64,000 nucleotides of DNA from Enterobacteria phage ATK47, in the sequence record NC_055708.1; one strand, given 5' to 3'. This document shows, one piece after another, positions 3,520-47,310 of the stretch (positions are counted from its first letter, which is position 1; every line of letters begins with the position of its first letter). A program made the translations under genes and the position numbers. The notes beneath the pieces were generated by a model. That model worked only from the letters and a program-made list of their open reading frames with translations. It ran no database searches and was not told the origin of the DNA.

Positions 3520-3549
3520 TTTAGTGTCCTGTGGTTTAGATTACATTAT

Positions 3550-3557
3550 TATTTATA
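3550..3557 (-). promoter_or_regulatory. T4-type late promoter TATAAATA (gene 22)
   Basis: Exact TATAAATA on minus strand 30 nt upstream of gene 22 ATG. Confidence 0.6.
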
Positions 3558-4200
3558 ATGCTTTTAAACTCTCTGCGAGAGCTTTAAATGCTTCGTCAGC
3601 ACTGTTTTTGGTGATTTCCACCGAATTTTCTGATTCTGATTCTGATATTTGTTTAGGAGTAACCCAAGCATCTGGAGCAGAAGGTCCCCATACGGCATCT
3701 ACGCCGACGGTTAATTTAAATCCTTCGTTCACGATACGGTACCCTTTATTGGTGTCGGTTAAAGAACCAAGACCACGAGAGGAAACACCTGGAATCCAAC
3801 CAGCTCGTATATTAGCAGCTAATTTATCGCCGGGACCATGGTCACCTTCAATAATTCTAGCACGTCCATATACATCGTTTCCTTTCCACCACATATCTTC
3901 AATAATGATAGCGGCTTGCATAGGGTCAACATTTGCACGAGGTGGATGGTTTAATTCTCCAAGGGCTTGTTTGGTTGCGACTTGTTCTTTAATATAGTCA
4001 CTTACTGCTTTTTCCAAAACGCGTTTAGGATATAAACGTTTATTTCGGTTAACAACCTCTGCCTGAAGAAAAATACCTTCTATATAAAGCCCTGGTTTTA
4101 AGCCAGAATCTTTTCCATCATGAGATTCCAACATTGGAACGCCATCAATAATCTCACCGGGTTGACCCCAAGTTTCAATAAGTAACTCGGGTTTATTCAT
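3553..4200 (-). CDS. 21: prohead protease gp21
   Basis: 215 aa; position and size as T4 gp21. Confidence 0.85.
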   Translation of the reverse strand: MNKPELLIETWGQPGEIIDGVPMLESHDGKDSGLKPGLYIEGIFLQAEVVNRNKRLYPKRVLEKAVSDYIKEQVATKQALGELNHPPRANVDPMQAAIIIEDMWWKGNDVYGRARIIEGDHGPGDKLAANIRAGWIPGVSSRGLGSLTDTNKGYRIVNEGFKLTVGVDAVWGPSAPDAWVTPKQISESESENSVEITKNSADEAFKALAESLKAL

Positions 4201-4864: not shown

Positions 4865-6435
4865 TAAAAATCCTCTTGTTCTTGGTCGGGGTCTTGGAAA
4901 CGAGCCTCTTTCGACTCTTCTTCAATTTGCTTAGCCTCTTGTTCAATTTCCTCGTCAGACATCTGAAGAATATCTTTCATAGCTGTTCTGTGAGAAATAT
5001 ATTTACCAATAAATGGTTCGGCCATCTGAAGCATATTAATGCGACGCTCCAGAATCTCAGCATCCTTTAATTCCGAGAAATAACTATCCCGATGAAATTT
5101 TATCTTAATATTATTTATTTCATCATTCCACTCATCTTCTGTAATAATTCCTTTAAGAATTAAATTAGTTTTAAGCGGGTCTAGGAATATCTCTTCAAAT
5201 TTATGTTGCAGCTCACGAATAAATTTACCAAATGACAATTCATCTCGTGTAATAGAAGTACCAGCATCAAACTGTATACCACCTTGGTCACTTGGAATAC
5301 GGGTAATAGGAATACGTAAAGCCATATAAAGCGCATTACGGAACCAACGTACATCTTCCATATTTCCAGTATTATCTGCACCTGGTAATGTGTCAACTTC
5401 TGTTACTGCTTTACCATCACGTCGTTGTAACCAATAATCTTCGGTCATCGACATAATATGCTGCTGGTTTTTAATCTTGCCTGTAGTAGCATCATATGCA
5501 ATACGGTTTTTCATCGTATTCATAACATGCTGCATATGTTCTGCTGCTTTTCTTGAAGGCATATTACCTGTATCAACGTACCATACACGACGATCGGGAG
5601 CACGAGTAATACGATAAATTACGACGGCATCTTCAAGAAGTTTTAATTGGTTCGCCGGCTTAATAGCCCGATGCAAATAACCGATGATATTTTTACCACA
5701 ACAATCAACTAAACCAGAATGGGCATAAACAATCGCGGCTTTAGGGATTTTTATTTTTGTGCCAGCTTCATATATGCGGCCATCACAAGCATAAGATTCG
5801 TGTGATGTGTCATAAATGAAATATTCTTTATAACCCTTGACTATTTTAACACCGGCTTCAGTGGTTGTAATAACTTCACGGACATATTGAACTTGACGTG
5901 GGTCTAAACGACGAAGCTCTTTAATACCTTCTTTAGGGCGTTTAGGGTCAATAATTTTATGGAAGAAAATTCGAGAATCTACATACCAACGCCTAAAATG
6001 GTCTGAACCTTTACGTTGGAAAGATAAATGATTCAACACTTCGTTAAATTCATCCAACATCATTGATTTTATATTTGGACTAAATTTTGTGTTGTCTAAA
6101 TTTATAGAAACGACTTCTGTGTCATCTTCATATACGATAGCATCAGAAACTATTTCAGAGACTGCATTATCCACTTCATAGTTCGTCATCAAATTTCTAT
6201 ACGTATCGATTAATTCACGCGTTGATTTGAGCCCTGGTTCTTGGCTACCGAACATTCTCTGAAACATAGCATTATATGTTTGCTGTGCTTCATTTTCAGA
6301 TACTTCGTATTCTTTAGCACCGTCGTCTAATTTTGGTGAGGTGATCGATTCTAAATTTTCTTTTTCTTGGTCTTTGTAATCACGTTCGTCCATTTTTGCC
6401 CATGGAGCAAACAAACTTAAGATATTAAATTTCAT
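4864..6435 (-). CDS. 20: portal vertex protein gp20
   Basis: 523 aa; size and synteny as T4 gp20. Confidence 0.9.
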
Positions 6436-32507: not shown

Positions 32508-33193
<686 letters not shown>

Positions 33194-33205
33194 TTTTACA
33201 AAACA

Positions 33206-33235
33206 GTTTACATAAGGATGATGGCGTGTTACTAT
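33206..33235 (+). promoter_or_regulatory. T4-type early promoter within palindrome
   Basis: GTTTAC, 18 nt, TACTAT; GGATGAT/ATCATCC inverted repeat flanks the -10. Confidence 0.6.
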
Positions 33236-33269
33236 CATCCTATCAAATAAACGACCTCAAGGAAATAAA

Positions 33270-33557
33270 ATGAAAACCTATAAAGAATTTATATCACCTG
33301 ATGCTAACGTTTCTACTCTGACCGAAGCGACCCTTACTTCCGAAGTTATTAAAGCAAATAAAGGACGTGAGGGTAAACCAATGATTAGTCTGGTTGACGG
33401 CGAAGAAGTAAAAGGTACTGTTTACTTAGGGGATGGATGGTCTGCTAAGAAAGATGGCGCTACTATTGTTATCTCTCCGGCTGAAGAGACTGCACTGTTT
33501 AAAGCTAAGCATATTTCTGTAGCTCAGCTTAAAATTATTGCAAAAACCCTTCTGTAA
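33270..33557 (+). CDS. internal protein with capsid-targeting leader (ipI position)
   Basis: 95 aa; N-terminus MKTYKEFI matches T4 internal-protein CTS consensus MKTYQEFIAE; adjacent to 57B as T4 ipI. Confidence 0.75.
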   Translation: MKTYKEFISPDANVSTLTEATLTSEVIKANKGREGKPMISLVDGEEVKGTVYLGDGWSAKKDGATIVISPAEETALFKAKHISVAQLKIIAKTLL

Positions 33558-33560
33558 GTA

Positions 33561-33590
33561 GTTTACATGCTGATAGGATTATGGTATAGT
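33561..33590 (+). promoter_or_regulatory. T4-type early promoter within palindrome
   Basis: GTTTAC, 18 nt, TATAGT; ATAGGA...TCCTAT inverted repeat. Confidence 0.6.
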
Positions 33591-33620
33591 AGTCCTATCA
33601 AAATTAATTAGGAAAATAAA

Positions 33621-33929
33621 ATGAAAACTTTCAAAGAATTTATCAATGAAGCGGCTGCACCAAAGACATTCGTTATTAATACTCAAGCGAGTCTTGATGA
33701 TGAGTACGCGGATGCAATTCTGAGGTCACTTGCTAAGAACGGCGTTGAAGTATCTGCATCAGACTTTAAGAAAGGGTCTTCCGAGATGTTTATTTCTATA
33801 GTTAAAGGATCTAAAGCTAAGATTAAATCATCATTCGGAGTTGCTCGTACCGATCAAATCGACAGTCATGACTTTAAACAAACCGGCGTTAAACGGCAGA
33901 ATACGATTGCATCACGCGGAATAAAATAG
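33621..33929 (+). CDS. internal protein-like (CTS leader)
   Basis: 102 aa; N-terminus MKTFKEFINE with I-N-E site resembling prohead protease motif. Confidence 0.7.
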   Translation: MKTFKEFINEAAAPKTFVINTQASLDDEYADAILRSLAKNGVEVSASDFKKGSSEMFISIVKGSKAKIKSSFGVARTDQIDSHDFKQTGVKRQNTIASRGIK

Positions 33930-33940
33930 TTTATAAAACC

Positions 33941-33970
33941 GTTTACTTTTAGATAGGGTAGTGATACTAT
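33941..33970 (+). promoter_or_regulatory. T4-type early promoter within palindrome
   Basis: GTTTAC, 18 nt, TG-a-TACTAT; ATAGGGTA...TACCCTAT inverted repeat. Confidence 0.6.
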
Positions 33971-33998
33971 TACCCTATCAACTACTGAGGAGAATAAA

Positions 33999-34184
33999 AT
34001 GAAACGCGCTGAACTGATTCGTAATGTTGCTGTAGTAATTGCTTCAATGGCTTTTAGTTTTTCGATGTTTGTAGGATTCATTTGTGGACTACTGACAACA
34101 ACTGAAAATTCTATCTCATTGGTAGTAGCATTTCTAATCGGTTTAATCGCTATTGTTATGGATAAAATTGCAAAAGGTGAGTAA
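33999..34184 (+). CDS. small membrane protein (61 aa, two hydrophobic helices)
   Basis: SD GAGGAGA; hydrophobic segments VAVVIASMAFSFSMFVGFICGLL and LVVAFLIGLIAIV. Confidence 0.55.
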   Translation: MKRAELIRNVAVVIASMAFSFSMFVGFICGLLTTTENSISLVVAFLIGLIAIVMDKIAKGE

Positions 34185-35434: not shown

Positions 35435-35509
35435 GGCCCTGTAGCTCAATGGGAGAGCTGTCAGCTCATAACTGATAGGTAGCTGGATCGAAACCAGCCA
35501 GGGTCACCA
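35435..35509 (+). tRNA. tRNA, anticodon CAT (Met, or Ile2 if lysidine-modified as in T4 tRNA-Ile)
   Basis: Cloverleaf folded by hand: acceptor GGCCCTG/CAGGGTC, D-stem GCTC/GAGC, anticodon loop CTCATAA, T-stem GCTGG/CCAGC, encoded CCA. Confidence 0.8.
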
Positions 35510-35512
35510 ATT

Positions 35513-35589
<77 letters not shown>

Positions 35590-36335: not shown

Positions 36336-36800
36336 ATGAAATCATACGCTGAATTTTTGACTGAACAATCTAGTTCAGATGTAAAAGCCGCTGCGATTGC
36401 AGCAATTCAAGCAGGTAAATATTCTTACAAAGACGCCTCTGATGAAGAACGTTTCCGTTTTATTAGAGATTTTAAAGCCGAAGGTTTTACTAATGCTAAT
36501 ACTGTTAGCCGAGTTTTTAAAAGCCTAGCTGCATCAGGTGAATTGTTCCAGAAAGCTACAGGTAAAGCACCTGCGCCAAAAACAGACCCTAAAGCAGCTC
36601 AAGAAAAAAATATCGCCAAAGGAATTATTTCTAAGTATGAAGCAATTCTTAAAGAGCTTTTAGTAATCAAAACAGAAGGCCAGAAACTGGCACGAGCACA
36701 TAGCTTCAAAGATAATCCTCACGCTCATAGCCTTGAGTATGTTGAAGATATCCAAAAACTTATTAAAGACCGTATCTGGTCTGCTAAACAAATTAAATAA
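36336..36800 (+). CDS. internal protein-like (CTS leader)
   Basis: 154 aa; N-terminus MKSYAEFLTE matches CTS pattern. Confidence 0.7.
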   Translation: MKSYAEFLTEQSSSDVKAAAIAAIQAGKYSYKDASDEERFRFIRDFKAEGFTNANTVSRVFKSLAASGELFQKATGKAPAPKTDPKAAQEKNIAKGIISKYEAILKELLVIKTEGQKLARAHSFKDNPHAHSLEYVEDIQKLIKDRIWSAKQIK

Positions 36801-42455: not shown

Positions 42456-43142
42456 ATGAATAGTTCTAAAGTGTTTAATAGTCAAGCTCGTGCAGTAGGT
42501 GGTTTTGCTCATGCGATTAAAAATGACCAGATTAAAAACGAGCCTATGTTCTTTAATTGCGATTTGAATTTTGCTTTTGATAACGGCGGTCCAATTACTC
42601 GTAGCTTTATCCAAAATCTCCCTGACGATTGGAAAGACTCGGATGTAGTATTTGATTCACGAGTCCATATGCTGATGCCTGGTTGGTATCCTGCTATTCC
42701 TGGTTATCACCATGATGACGTACCACGCCCGGATATTCCGGTTGGTCAACATTTTATTACTGCAGGACAACCTGACTATGACAATCCTCGCTATTTGTCT
42801 GAACATATTCTTGGTCTTGTTAACGCTGATGTGTGTCCTACTCATTTTGCAACAGGAACTGCAGAGTTCAGTCAGATTCCTGATGGCGAACTTATCTATC
42901 GCCAGTGTCACAAAGAAGTCCTCGAAAAAATTGAAAAAGGTGAACTAGAGAAATGGGAAGCTCCAGATCGTACTCTTCTTCAGTTTGATTGGCAAACATG
43001 GCACACTGGTTCTCGTGCAATTAGTAATGGATGGCGTTGGTTCGGACGTGTATCTCGTAATACAGACCGAGTTAAAAAGATTACCAATGAAATTCGTGTC
43101 AATGCTCAAGTTTATCTGGAATTCCCTATGGAAGGCTGGTAA
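42456..43142 (+). CDS. putative 2OG-Fe(II) oxygenase-like protein (228 aa)
   Basis: H85-x-D87 ... H183 ... R198-x-S200 spacing fits the 2OG oxygenase facial triad plus RxS 2OG-binding motif; not verified. Confidence 0.35.
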   Translation: MNSSKVFNSQARAVGGFAHAIKNDQIKNEPMFFNCDLNFAFDNGGPITRSFIQNLPDDWKDSDVVFDSRVHMLMPGWYPAIPGYHHDDVPRPDIPVGQHFITAGQPDYDNPRYLSEHILGLVNADVCPTHFATGTAEFSQIPDGELIYRQCHKEVLEKIEKGELEKWEAPDRTLLQFDWQTWHTGSRAISNGWRWFGRVSRNTDRVKKITNEIRVNAQVYLEFPMEGW

Positions 43143-43633
43143 TGATTAACAAAACATATTGGTCTAATATAGACGATGGCAACGAAGGTATTTCGTACTA
43201 TTCAGTGGATTGGACAGGATGTCCATCCTACTTAGTGAAACGTATTTGCCAAGAATTTAAAATCGACCAGCCAGCAGGTATTATCGTGAACAGATACATT
43301 AATGGATATCAACCTATCGATGAAGTAATACGAACAACTCAAGCTGAGCTTGAAAAGTTTTTCAATAAGTGCCAATGGATAACAGGATGGATTATATTTG
43401 TACCGTCGGTATGGTTTTTCAGTACTAAGGTGAGTTCTTTCGGATTTGTTGATATTATTGCTATCTTATTAGCATCTAGTATCGTAAGTGTTGTTGGTGG
43501 CATCATTGGCGGCGGTACCGCCGCCATCATTATTAATCTTATTAAAAGTAGTTTACAAGAACATAAAGACAAGATAAAAGCCAAGAATAATGAAGTTGAA
43601 CGTTTTATTACCGAATGCAGGAATTTGAGATGA
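43142..43633 (+). CDS. membrane protein (163 aa) ending ERFITECRNLR
   Basis: C-terminal hydrophobic helices and conserved tail; ATGA overlap with neighbours. Confidence 0.6.
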   Translation: MINKTYWSNIDDGNEGISYYSVDWTGCPSYLVKRICQEFKIDQPAGIIVNRYINGYQPIDEVIRTTQAELEKFFNKCQWITGWIIFVPSVWFFSTKVSSFGFVDIIAILLASSIVSVVGGIIGGGTAAIIINLIKSSLQEHKDKIKAKNNEVERFITECRNLR

Positions 43634-43866
43634 GTATAGCAATTTACATTAAATCAGAATCATGTGATAGTTATCTGTACACATATGATAAAGATGTGTC
43701 AGAAGAAAAAATCAAAGACGACCTTAATACGGACCTTGATATGTTCTGTCCTATTGCAGATTACAAACTTGCGGTCTCTAATAGTGAAAGTCCATCTAAA
43801 GAAACGCGCATTGAAGAATTTATGTCTGAATTAATGGCCAAATCATGGGACCGAGATGATGAGTAA
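43630..43866 (+). CDS. hypothetical acidic protein (78 aa)
   Basis: ATG 43630 overlapping previous stop. Confidence 0.55.
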   Translation: MSIAIYIKSESCDSYLYTYDKDVSEEKIKDDLNTDLDMFCPIADYKLAVSNSESPSKETRIEEFMSELMAKSWDRDDE

Positions 43867-44314
43867 GAAAAATAAAGTGAAAGAGCTATCAGCCGGTATT
43901 ATTTTCCTTACCGAAGATAAAGAGTTATTCATGGGGCGTGTAACTGGTTCTCGTCCTAAAGGTGCATTAACTCATCGGTGGGATATTCCTAAAGGCCGTG
44001 TCGAACCTGGCGAATCTCCTATTGAAGCCGCTATTCGTGAATGCGAAGAAGAAACTGGGTTTACACAATATGACCCTGCCTTCCTGAAAGACCTAGGTGA
44101 ACATCATTACTCAGACAATAAGAATATTCATCTGTTCCTATATACCATCCCTGTAGAGCACGAGCAATTCAGAAACAGTGTTTGTAATTCCTATCATACA
44201 TTCCAAGACGGACGACAGATTCCTGAATTTGATGCATTCGCTTTAATTAAACCTTCTCAATGGGAATATGTAATGGGCAAATCGTTATATAAGGTGCTCA
44301 CTACCCTCCTATAA
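43856..44314 (+). CDS. nudE: Nudix hydrolase
   Basis: Nudix box GRVEPGESPIEAAIRECEEETGF; immediately upstream of lysozyme as T4 e.1. Confidence 0.85.
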   Translation: MMSKKNKVKELSAGIIFLTEDKELFMGRVTGSRPKGALTHRWDIPKGRVEPGESPIEAAIRECEEETGFTQYDPAFLKDLGEHHYSDNKNIHLFLYTIPVEHEQFRNSVCNSYHTFQDGRQIPEFDAFALIKPSQWEYVMGKSLYKVLTTLL

Positions 44315-44320
44315 GTAATA

Positions 44321-44348
44321 AATACCTCCTATAAACGTGGGAGGTATT
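44321..44348 (+). promoter_or_regulatory. SD-sequestering hairpin with late-promoter-like element for lysozyme gene
   Basis: AATACCTCC / GGAGGTATT 9-bp stem pairs the SD; AATAAATA (44317-44324) and TATAAACG in the loop region. Confidence 0.6.
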
Positions 44349-44837
44349 ATGAATATATTTGAAATGCTTCGTAATGACGAAGGTCTTAGACTGACTTTAT
44401 ACAAAGACACTGAAGGCTTTTGGACGATTGGCATAGGCCATTTAGTAACAAAGAACCCGTCTTTAGCCGTAGCTAAAGCTGAACTTGACAGAATGATCGG
44501 CCGTAAATGCAACGGTACAATTACCCTTGATGAGGCTGAAAAGCTATTTAATGAAGACGTTGATAAAGCTGTCCGCGGAATCTTGGGTAATGCTAAACTT
44601 AAACCGGTATATGATTCTTTAGATGCAGTTCGTCGGTGTGCATTGGTCAATATGGTCTTCCAAATGGGTGTAGCAGGAGTCGCCGGTTTTACTAATTCTC
44701 TTCGTATGCTTAAACAGAAACGTTGGGATGAAGCGGCAGTAAATCTAGCTCAATCTAAATGGTATCGTCAGACACCTAATCGCGCGAAACGCGTAATCTC
44801 AACATTTAAAACAGGAACTTGGAAAGCGTATATATGA
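44349..44837 (+). CDS. e: lysozyme (endolysin)
   Basis: [31 protein letters not shown]; about 85 percent identical to T4 lysozyme as recalled. Confidence 0.97.
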
Positions 44838-45115
44838 AAACATATAGTGAATTTTTATCAGAATCTATTCTTAACGAAGCTACTGACACATTTGCAACTA
44901 AGCTAGGTGCAGCTTTGGTTGAAGCTGAAAGTCTATTAGCACGTATTTCTGAACTTGCTAGTAAGATAGATACTCGCAAATTTGAACGTACCAGCGATAT
45001 CGCTAAGCTTGAAGCCTTGTTGCGTATGTGCGATAAACCAGAAGAAATCGCTAAGAACGGCTCGCTGATGAAACAACGTCTTGAAAAATATATTTCAGGC
45101 GCTTCAGAAAAATAG
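44834..45115 (+). CDS. internal protein-like (CTS leader)
   Basis: 93 aa from ATG 44834; N-terminus [15 protein letters not shown]. Confidence 0.7.
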
Positions 45116-45116
45116 T

Positions 45117-45146
45117 GTTTACTTCCTCCAAGGGTTTTGATACTAT
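45117..45146 (+). promoter_or_regulatory. T4-type early promoter for denV, spanned by anti-SD hairpin
   Basis: GTTTAC, 18 nt, TG-a-TACTAT; TTCCTCCAAG (45123-45132) is perfect complement of SD region CTTGGAGGAA (45161-45170). Confidence 0.6.
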
Positions 45147-45173
45147 ACATTCATCAACTACTTGGAGGAAATT

Positions 45174-45587
45174 ATGACTCGTATCAATTTAACACTTGTT
45201 TCTGAACTGTCCGACCAACATCTTATGGCTGAGTATCGTGAATTACCACGCGTATTTGGTGCAGTCCGTAAACATGTTCAAAACGGTAAACGTGTAAAGG
45301 ATTTTAAAATCTCTCCAACATTTATCTTAGGCACAGGTCACGTAACATTCTTTTACGACAAACTCGAATTTTTACGTTTACGTCAAATCGAGCTAATCGC
45401 TGAATGTTTGAAACGTGGTTTCAAAATCAAGGACACGACAGTCCAGGATATTTCCGACATCCCTGCCGAATTTCGTAATAATTATGTCCCGTCCGAAGCG
45501 TCCATTGCGATAAGTCAAGCACGCTTAGATGAAAAAATTGCTCAACGTCCGACTTGGTACAAATACTATGGTAAATCAATTTACTAA
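45174..45587 (+). CDS. denV: endonuclease V (pyrimidine dimer DNA glycosylase)
   Basis: [34 protein letters not shown]; near-identical to recalled T4 endo V. Confidence 0.97.
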
Positions 45588-45594
45588 GGAAAAA

Positions 45595-45924
45595 ATGAAA
45601 ACATATCAAGAGTTTATCACTGAAGTTACATTATCTGCGGAACAGAAAGCTGCTATCGAAGAAAGTAAAAATCCCAAAGTAACATATAAAGTAAATAGTA
45701 AAGGCGTTTTTGATGGCTTGGTTCAAGACCCTGAATTGAAAAAAGCTCTTTCTAAAACTAATGCGTACTTTGCTCCTAAATTTAACACAGCCGGTGTACT
45801 TATTGGATTGGATGTATTCAACTCTAAAGGTGTTCTATCTAATGCCTTTGGCTATGCCGCTAACAAAATTACCAAAGCCGCATGGGAATCCAATACCAAA
45901 CAAGCTCAAAAGCCTAGAGTATAA
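45595..45924 (+). CDS. internal protein-like (CTS leader)
   Basis: 109 aa from ATG 45595; N-terminus MKTYQEFITE. Confidence 0.7.
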   Translation: MKTYQEFITEVTLSAEQKAAIEESKNPKVTYKVNSKGVFDGLVQDPELKKALSKTNAYFAPKFNTAGVLIGLDVFNSKGVLSNAFGYAANKITKAAWESNTKQAQKPRV

Positions 45925-46030
45925 TTCTTGTCTAATAAAGGGAAACGCAACCTCTCCTTATGAACGTCGAGTCCTCTGAGTGATGTACCTTTTCCAACCT
46001 GTAATAAGGTCGAGCGCAATGCGGTAATGG

Positions 46031-46060
46031 GTTTACATAGCGAGTCGAAGGACCTAACAT
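46031..46060 (+). promoter_or_regulatory. possible early promoter (weak -10)
   Basis: GTTTAC, 18 nt, TAACAT. Confidence 0.3.
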
Positions 46061-46096
46061 GTGCCACGGAATGGCCCAAACCTTAAGAGAAATAAT

Positions 46097-46636
46097 ATGA
46101 GAACATTTTTAACTGGACCTTATCTATCCCTGATGAATGCTTTTACACACCATTCTGATGCTAGAGTAGAAGAAATTTGTAAGAACGGTTATATCCCACC
46201 ATTTGAAGACGTACTCAAGCAGTACTGTACACTTCGTTTAGACGGCGGCAGACAATCAGGTAAATCAATTGCTGTGACTAACTTTGCTGCTAATTGGCTG
46301 TACGATGGTGGAACAGTTATTATTCTTTCTAATACTTCAGCTTATGCTAAAATTTCTGCTGGCAACATTGAAAAAGAATTTTCTCGTTATTCTAGCGACA
46401 ATATTCGATTCCGTTTATTTACTGATTCTGTCCGTAGTTTTATTGGCAATGAAGGTTCTAAATTCCGTGGATTAACGCTTTCTCGTATTCTGTATATAAT
46501 TGACGAGCCTATTAAAGCTCCTGATATGGATAAGATTTACAATGTCCATATTAAAACAGTACAGTACTGCTGCAAAAGCAAATATTGCATCGGCGGTAAT
46601 TCTCGTCCTCAATTTTTTGTGATTGGAATGCAATGA
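46097..46636 (+). CDS. small P-loop NTPase-like protein (179 aa)
   Basis: Walker A-like GGRQSGKS and Walker B-like ILYIIDEP. Confidence 0.5.
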   Translation: MRTFLTGPYLSLMNAFTHHSDARVEEICKNGYIPPFEDVLKQYCTLRLDGGRQSGKSIAVTNFAANWLYDGGTVIILSNTSAYAKISAGNIEKEFSRYSSDNIRFRLFTDSVRSFIGNEGSKFRGLTLSRILYIIDEPIKAPDMDKIYNVHIKTVQYCCKSKYCIGGNSRPQFFVIGMQ

Positions 46637-46941
46637 TGACCACTATTGAAGTTTTTGAATATTGTTATAACAGCCCAGTATGCAATAAAAGGGCTCTTGT
46701 AGAAAATTATGAGATTTACCATTTTAAACCTAAACGATATCGTTTGACTAAAGGCCCGTTCGCAGGGCAGCAGGTTCTTTGTACTGCTCCTAATGCACGG
46801 TTGATGACTAGTATTCCGCATTTCAAAATGGAATTTATTGATGGGCCATTTAAGGGATTAATCACTCAAAGTTTAATGGCGTTTAATTCCGACCCATTTT
46901 TGATTAAAGAAAAATCTTGGATAAATTTATTTTCTAATTGA
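46633..46941 (+). CDS. hypothetical protein (102 aa)
   Basis: ATGA overlap with upstream P-loop gene. Confidence 0.5.
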   Translation: MMTTIEVFEYCYNSPVCNKRALVENYEIYHFKPKRYRLTKGPFAGQQVLCTAPNARLMTSIPHFKMEFIDGPFKGLITQSLMAFNSDPFLIKEKSWINLFSN

Positions 46942-46947
46942 GGTTAT

Positions 46948-47310
46948 ATGAAAGCATATCAAATTCTTGAAGGTGAACATAAAGGCACTATTTATTTTGA
47001 AGACTGTACTCAAGCCCGGATTATTGTCTCTAAGACTTTTAAAGAAGACGCTATTGTAGATCCAGAAATTTTCTACGGTTTGAATGCTCGTGAAATTGAA
47101 ATTGAACATCAACCTAAAGTTAAAATTGAAGGTGGTCAACACCTGAACGTTAACGTTCTGCGTCGCGAAACTCTGGAAGATGCAGTTAAGCATCCAGAAA
47201 AATATCCGCAGCTGACCATCCGTGTATCCGGTTATGCAGTTCGCTTTAACTCTCTGACTCCGGAACAGCAGCGCGACGTTATCGCTCGTACCTTTACCGA
47301 GAGTCTATAA
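46948..47310 (+). CDS. autonomous glycyl radical cofactor (GrcA/YfiD-like)
   Basis: C-terminal [25 protein letters not shown] glycyl-radical motif. Confidence 0.85.

Follow-up and report, generated by a model that had tools for sequence, protein, structure and literature searches.

The stretch between the lysozyme gene e and vs.8 in Enterobacteria phage ATK47 carries one small gene on each side of denV, and both begin with a leader of the kind that targets T4 internal proteins (IPs) to the prohead. This arrangement raises the question of whether the two are simply orthologues of T4 ipIII and ipII, or whether they reached the locus as exchangeable cassettes encoding injected proteins, as an initial annotation made from the DNA letters had proposed. 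We addressed it in a 64,000-nucleotide stretch of the ATK47 record (NC_055708.1), hereafter the window, to which all positions refer unless another locus is named.

Gene order and capsid-targeting leaders

Positions 43800-46700 are 100% identical to Enterobacteria phage ATK48 and ~98% identical to RB69 (both Mosigvirus, Tevenvirinae), and the genes run on the plus strand in the order nudE, e, 93-aa gene, denV, 109-aa gene, vs.8, vs.7 and vs.6 (Table 1). The two genes of 93 and 109 aa that had been reported on either side of denV were confirmed as open reading frames (ORFs) at the positions listed. The start codon of the 93-aa gene overlaps the stop codon of e in an ATGA, the 109-aa gene begins 7 nt beyond the stop codon of denV, and ~170 nt of non-coding DNA separate it from vs.8.

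Table 1. Features of the two internal-protein loci in the window.
Feature	Position	Strand	Basis
57B	32738-33193		
ipI orthologue, 95 aa	33270-33557		88% identical to T4 IPI (GmrSD inhibitor)
Ip7 orthologue	33621-33929		92% identical to T2 Ip7
trna.4	after the Ip7 orthologue, second IP locus		
nudE	43856-44314	+	
Hairpin tacctcc / ggaggta, sequestering the Shine-Dalgarno sequence of e	44323-44346	+	Read from sequence
e, lysozyme; conserved left anchor of the variable locus	44349-44837	+	Pfam Phage_lysozyme 8e-14; annotated e in RB69 and ATK48
Recombinant patch, 3' end of e to 5' end of denV	44725-45234	+	Sliding-window identity to L021
93-aa internal-protein gene, Ip5 family (RB69ORF127c)	44834-45115	+	phrog_3499 and T2 Ip5 homology
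Leader-coding 30 nt (CTS) of the 93-aa gene; gp21 predicted to cleave after Glu10	44834-44863	+	
T4-early-promoter-like element GTTTAC-N18-TACTAT upstream of denV	45117-45146	+	Pattern scan, consensus match only
denV, pyrimidine-dimer glycosylase; conserved gene within the variable locus	45174-45587	+	Pfam Pyr_excise PF03013 4.8e-14; phrog_1183 3e-62; RB69 and ATK48 annotation
Indel junction relative to RB69, NHEP11 and L005	45588-45604	+	Global alignments
109-aa candidate internal-protein gene (RB69ORF123c)	45595-45924	+	CTS start; phrog_3966
Leader-coding 30 nt (CTS, MKTYQEFITE) of the 109-aa gene; gp21 predicted to cleave after Glu10	45595-45624	+	
vs.8 homologue; conserved right anchor of the variable locus	46097-46636	+	phrog_1488 1e-77; 89% identity to T4 Vs.8 residues 38-219
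vs.7	after vs.8		
vs.6 (GrcA-like)	46948-47310	+	

Both small ORFs open with the T4 capsid-targeting sequence (CTS), the consensus of which is approximately MKTYQEFIAE, with Tyr4 and Phe7 mattering for targeting (PMC9026906). The pattern MKxYxEF[ILV] has four matches in the six-frame translation of the window, where residue frequencies predict ~0.002, and 200 shuffles gave one match in total. When the relaxed match MKTFKEFINE is added, the window holds five CTS matches and all five lie at ORF starts; given this placement and the excess over expectation, the CTS observation is therefore real and not a product of chance. Residues 8-10 of each leader match the L/I-x-E motif of the gp21 protease at the level of sequence, as L8-S9-E10 in the 93-aa protein and I8-T9-E10 in the 109-aa protein. 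Both genes carry the marks of a CTS-targeted IP, namely the leader, the L/I-x-E site, a position within a variable IP locus and presence/absence variation, the locus itself being recognized by synteny with T4, T2, RB69 and the 36 loci surveyed below.

The window also contains the second classical IP locus (32738-34178), from 57B to trna.4. The ipI-type leader there lacks Glu10, and cleavage is likely to occur at LTE (residues 17-19). Outside both classical loci, downstream of tRNA-Met and tRNA-Arg (35435-35589), an ORF of 154 aa (36336-36800) has the CTS-like start MKSYAEFLTE. It belongs to phrog_2280 (unknown function), has 510 phage records, every one labelled 'hypothetical protein', and was absent from the T4 and T2 stretches checked; the ORF may mark an unrecognised third IP slot.

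To the right of the 109-aa gene, the gap before vs.8 (45925-46096) gave no Rfam match, and a structured RNA at this position was rejected, as the gap folds worse than its shuffles (z +2.4). The gap shares homology with the 5' extension of the annotated 219-aa vs.8 ORF of T4 and is out of frame here, with in-frame vs.8 homology starting at MRTFLTG. Either the T4 vs.8 start is over-extended or the N-terminus has been lost in the window.

Relationship to known internal proteins

The 93-aa protein matches phrog_3499, 'internal head protein', over residues 1-87 (2e-46), and over 84 aa it shares 48% identity (E 4e-22) with T2 Ip5, the gene for which lies at the other IP locus, beside 57B. It occurs in 495 phage records, with at least 80% identity in 237 of them, T4's own genus included, and the RefSeq label of the gene is already 'internal head protein'. 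The AF2 model is an all-helical bundle (pLDDT 72.6, pTM 0.36) for which Foldseek found no match in the PDB. With a pI of 6.3 the mature protein is close to neutral, whereas IPs are classically basic, and a dN/dS of ~0.1 indicates purifying selection on the gene.

The 109-aa protein belongs to phrog_3966 (unknown function; 3e-32), a family of 89 phage records that are all labelled 'hypothetical'. At least 95% identity is seen in 75 of these, from RB69-like phages, and a few homologues, ~35% identical, occupy the same slot right after denV in Dhakavirus; the family is confined to these two groups. The mature protein is basic (pI 9.7), and the gene is under purifying selection, with a dN/dS of 0.16-0.27 calculated from few differences. 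The AF2 model is unusable (pLDDT 48). No Pfam family was matched even at an E-value of 10, and an MBG_2 domain (PF18676, YGX-type) was rejected because the phmmer matches that had suggested it were inflated by 9-13 repeats; hhalign to MBG repeats gave a probability of 10%. A deep homologue search with the two proteins returned only 2 and 5 clusters, all near-identical, and therefore no useful alignment depth, and a literature search found no papers naming RB69ORF127c or RB69ORF123c.

Among individual loci, the 109-aa gene is missing from L004, and in L084 (E. coli O157 typing phage 13) a 96-nt in-frame insertion (2310-2405 of that locus) extends the product to 141 aa; the inserted stretch carries no annotation in its record.

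In the T4 record the order is e, ipIII (193 aa), ipII (100 aa), denV, vs.8, just as the initial annotation had given it. That annotation had further described the window as differing from T4 in the number, size and order of the genes. The difference holds for size, position and protein family; it does not hold for number, as each phage has two CTS genes at this locus. When the leaders were removed, BLASTP against T4 IPII and IPIII gave a best E-value of 0.59 for the 93-aa protein (to ipII) and no match for the 109-aa protein, so similarity ends at residue 10. Orthology with ipII and ipIII was rejected on this ground and because family clustering placed the two proteins in families C and I and not in B or E. 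The objection that these might simply be the T4 genes with the order misstated thus fails on both counts, the mature parts being dissimilar and the order correct.

A stricter version would hold that the window genes are vertically inherited ipIII and ipII that have diverged past recognition, with denV moved between them and no exchange of cassettes. The equal count of two CTS genes in each phage would fit this, as would the fast evolution of IP genes in an arms race (PMC3012670), yet beyond the loss of any likeness past residue 10, divergence has not erased the same genes elsewhere. Both remain recognisable in the far more distant Dhakavirus AnYang, where they are annotated IpIII and IpII, and the ipIII family (B, 192 aa) is recognisable in the Mosigvirus loci L004 and L005, the DenV of which is 98% identical. 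The 93-aa protein, moreover, groups with Ip5, a resident of the other IP locus, and the mosaic patch described below shows recent transfer. We regard unrecognisable vertical descent as very improbable.

Cassette exchange between e and vs.8

To place the arrangement in context, 80 denV loci were collected from IMG/VR and the named phages added, which yielded 36 independent loci with a conserved e...denV...vs.8 backbone. CTS genes flank denV on both sides in a majority of them (23 of 36); counted as left,right of denV, these comprise 1,1 (9 loci), 1,2 (7), 1,3 (3), 2,1 (3) and 2,2 (1). The others are 1,0 (6 loci), 0,1 (2), 0,2 (1), 0,0 (1) and the T4 pattern of 2,0, which is found in just 3 of the 36. 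The interval accommodates 13 unrelated CTS families, and these are not tied to one side: the ipIII family precedes denV in 6 loci and follows it in 7, another family is found once on the left and 12 times on the right, and two families are found in either order (L007 versus L039).

Among close relatives, the cassettes that follow denV differ by whole genes. The window has the 109-aa gene there, NHEP11 has genes of 86 and 109 aa, RB69 of 86, 90 and 109 aa, L004 of 86 and 192 aa (ipIII family), and L005 of 86, 192 (ipIII family) and 109 aa. NHEP11, RB69 and L005 accordingly have one or two extra CTS cassettes at the indel junction of the window, which global alignment puts either at 45591/45592 (4 nt upstream of the ATG) or 9 nt inside the CTS. 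In four of five Mosigvirus comparisons, the indel corresponds to one CTS-to-CTS cassette, and no junction lies more than 9 nt from a CTS start codon. Those among the window, NHEP11, RB69 and L005 fall from 4 nt before to 9 nt after the CTS start codon, all at CTS starts, and each indel is therefore exactly one CTS-to-CTS unit; in the fifth comparison, L004 versus L005, the junction is not at a CTS. A clean single crossover between the leaders of RB69 ORF125c and ORF123c was considered and rejected, as the window CTS is a mosaic of both.

The DNA of unrelated families offers a basis for such junctions, with an identity of 0.79-0.85 in the 30-nt CTS, 0.25-0.33 after codon 10 and 0.29-0.43 upstream. 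Identity is confined to the leader-coding stretch, so that legitimate recombination has no other homology to use, and T4-type recombination needs <50 bp (Arbiol 2010, PMC2839356). On the comparison made here, homologous recombination at the 30-nt CTS and its ribosome-binding site adds or removes CTS-to-CTS units, and crossovers in the conserved e and denV genes carry a whole cassette between genera.

An example of the latter is preserved in L021, a contig with a T4-like backbone. Relative to the window, its Vs.8 is 89% identical, Vs.6 93%, NudE 63% and DenV 76%, and its 93-aa gene is 99% identical. In a sliding window, DNA identity is 96-100% within 44725-45234 and 55-80% outside it, and this patch records a recent transfer, the crossovers of which fell within e and denV. 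The same 93-aa gene is present at 98.9% identity in the Tequatrovirus slur14, with the layout e, 93-aa gene, denV, 157-aa IP, vs.8. The locus survey, the CTS-bound indel junctions and the L021 mosaic together bear out the earlier suggestion that genes for injected proteins are exchanged here in a cassette-like manner.

Several other loci are of note in their own right. In T2 (L086, 1941-3000) there is no denV at the locus, and e is followed directly by ipIV (157 aa); an ipIV-type gene stands after denV in slur14 and L020. The GenBank product names of vB_EcoM_ESCO10 (L088) appear to be wrong across the whole locus, with denV labelled 'hypothetical', the CTS genes 'RNA polymerase ADP-ribosylase', and nudE and e 'baseplate subunit'.

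The plasticity of IP loci, and shuffling through short boundary sequences, is already published: Arbiol 2010 (PMC2839356; citing Repoila 1994 and Comeau 2007) describes the two T-even IP loci as highly variable and shuffled, with >30 IP variants. The present analysis makes small additions to this, in that the T4 order proves exceptional by count, indel junctions map to the CTS itself, a mosaic patch joins two genera, and a 'hypothetical' 109-aa family emerges as an IP candidate.

Expression, probable packaging and probable role

Upstream of e, the Shine-Dalgarno-sequestering hairpin is annotated 'terminator' in ATK48; we take it to resemble the translational control of T4 e. The late-promoter-like sequences TATAAGTA and AATAAATA lie just upstream of it at 44310-44324. 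No exact late promoter TATAAATA was found within 43000-46200, and a motif scan located one-mismatch versions at 44310, 44317 and 45558; a generic scan for sigma-70 promoters and terminators did no better than on shuffles. We infer late expression of the two genes because they are coupled to e and denV, the nearby promoters being one-mismatch versions.

The want of a canonical late promoter, and the start of the 109-aa gene directly behind denV, an early gene, would also suit a reading in which the leaders are relics and the products stay unpackaged, the genes being either decaying ORFs or ordinary accessory genes of the early or middle class. RB69 illustrates that an ORF can persist after its leader is lost. 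In the reference sequence (L001), the leader of the 93-aa gene (3535-3816) is wrecked by a compensating -1/+1 frameshift pair and reads MKTYMNFYQNLSLNEA, and in the 109-aa gene (4960-5289) Glu10 at the predicted cleavage site is replaced by Ala. These lesions could be laboratory-strain decay or old sequencing errors, and the remaining Mosigvirus loci examined (L004, L005, L084, L085) have an intact leader, as does L021. The conservation of the 30-nt CTS across unrelated families, amid flanks at background identity, implies selection on the leader itself, a dN/dS of ~0.1 speaks against decay, and translational coupling ties the 93-aa gene to e, a gene required late. That the leaders are mere relics is accordingly hard to credit.

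The two genes are, in our judgement, quite probably two unrelated IP cassettes in a hypervariable e-denV-vs.8 locus, the products of which are packaged by means of the CTS and probably injected to counter host defence, with recombination at the CTS and in flanking genes as the source of turnover. By analogy with T4 (PMC9026906, PMC3012670), the 10-residue CTS would attach each precursor to the prohead's scaffolding core. The gp21 prohead protease would then trim the leader after Glu10 at the L/I-x-E site, and the mature proteins of ~83 and ~99 residues would be retained in the head alongside the DNA and reach the host cell together with it.

Once injected, they would most probably block a fast-acting host defence, for which T4 Ip1, Ip2 and Ip3 provide the precedent. 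Each of these inhibits a distinct subtype of the GmrSD type IV restriction enzyme without cross-protection (Silas 2025, PMC12373910), and IPIII is required to infect E. coli ECOR17 (PMC9391042). The window proteins are not homologous to Ip1-3, and it is by this analogy that injected anti-restriction is their likely role. In the proposal of Silas et al., GmrSD variants are the targets of all proteins encoded at both IP loci; ten other ip genes that they tried against new GmrSD systems gave no new inhibition (PMC12373910), so that GmrSD as the target of the window proteins is far from certain. More speculatively, the 109-aa family and the Ip5-like protein might inhibit unidentified defences, possibly ones directed against arabinosyl-hmC DNA of the RB69 type and not the glucosyl-hmC DNA of T4, with the CTS doubling as a dedicated recombination site, comparable to the attC of integrons, that confines the cassettes to these slots; we offer this tentatively.

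Packaging through the CTS would be equally expected if the proteins acted within the head, in neutralising DNA charge, in condensation or in scaffold assembly, and not against host defence. The basic mature 109-aa protein suits such a function, IP lysines contact DNA phosphates, and IPIII mutants show head-assembly aberrations (PMC3012670, PMC9026906). The 93-aa protein, however, is not basic, and anti-restriction targets are now known for all three T4 IPs. Presence and absence among phages ~98% identical at the locus fits an accessory host-range role better, and transfer between genera likewise suits such a role better than a structural need. We therefore consider action in the head unlikely and favour injected anti-defence.

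As IPs arrive with the DNA, they are the earliest counter-defence of the phage, and their turnover documents the arms race with modification-dependent restriction systems. The locus adds two uncharacterised candidates, one of which had never been annotated as an IP, and provides a clean illustration of cassette boundaries that coincide with the CTS. This leaves current understanding unchanged, and may be of use in picking candidates for anti-defence screens and in engineering CTS-directed protein delivery.

The closest point of comparison is T4 IPII and IPIII. The anchors e, denV and vs.8 are the same, as is the 10-residue CTS with its Glu10 site; in both phages the genes are small and non-essential, and the products presumably follow the same route through the prohead core, gp21 cleavage and co-injection. 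The mature parts, in contrast, are unrelated, the proteins are of 93 and 109 aa in the window against 193 and 100 aa in T4, and one window gene lies downstream of denV. In T4, Ip2 and Ip3 inhibit the GmrSD of E. coli ECOR21 and ECOR17, respectively (PMC12373910).

T2 Ip5 and phrog_3499 are closer to the 93-aa protein in descent, as it is a true homologue, with a fold predicted to be helical; unlike Ip5, which is encoded between 57B and trna.4, it is encoded between e and denV, is 9 residues longer and has diverged. T4 IPI* shares the delivery logic, and the window carries its own ipI orthologue, although IPI* is unrelated in sequence to the 93-aa and 109-aa proteins and its gene lies at the other IP locus.

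At the level of mechanism, the locus resembles the PeSL-ORFan cassettes of RB49 and phi1 (Arbiol 2010), in which homologous recombination acts on short conserved boundary sequences, and small accessory genes enter, leave or replace one another singly within hyperplastic regions. 'PeSL-like' elements were seen at IP loci by Repoila 1994, according to Arbiol 2010 (PMC2839356). PeSLs, however, consist of a promoter with a stem-loop, whereas the shared sequence in the window is mostly coding, comprising the 30-nt CTS and a Shine-Dalgarno sequence, and among the intergenic spacers of RB69 a single one has an obvious early promoter.
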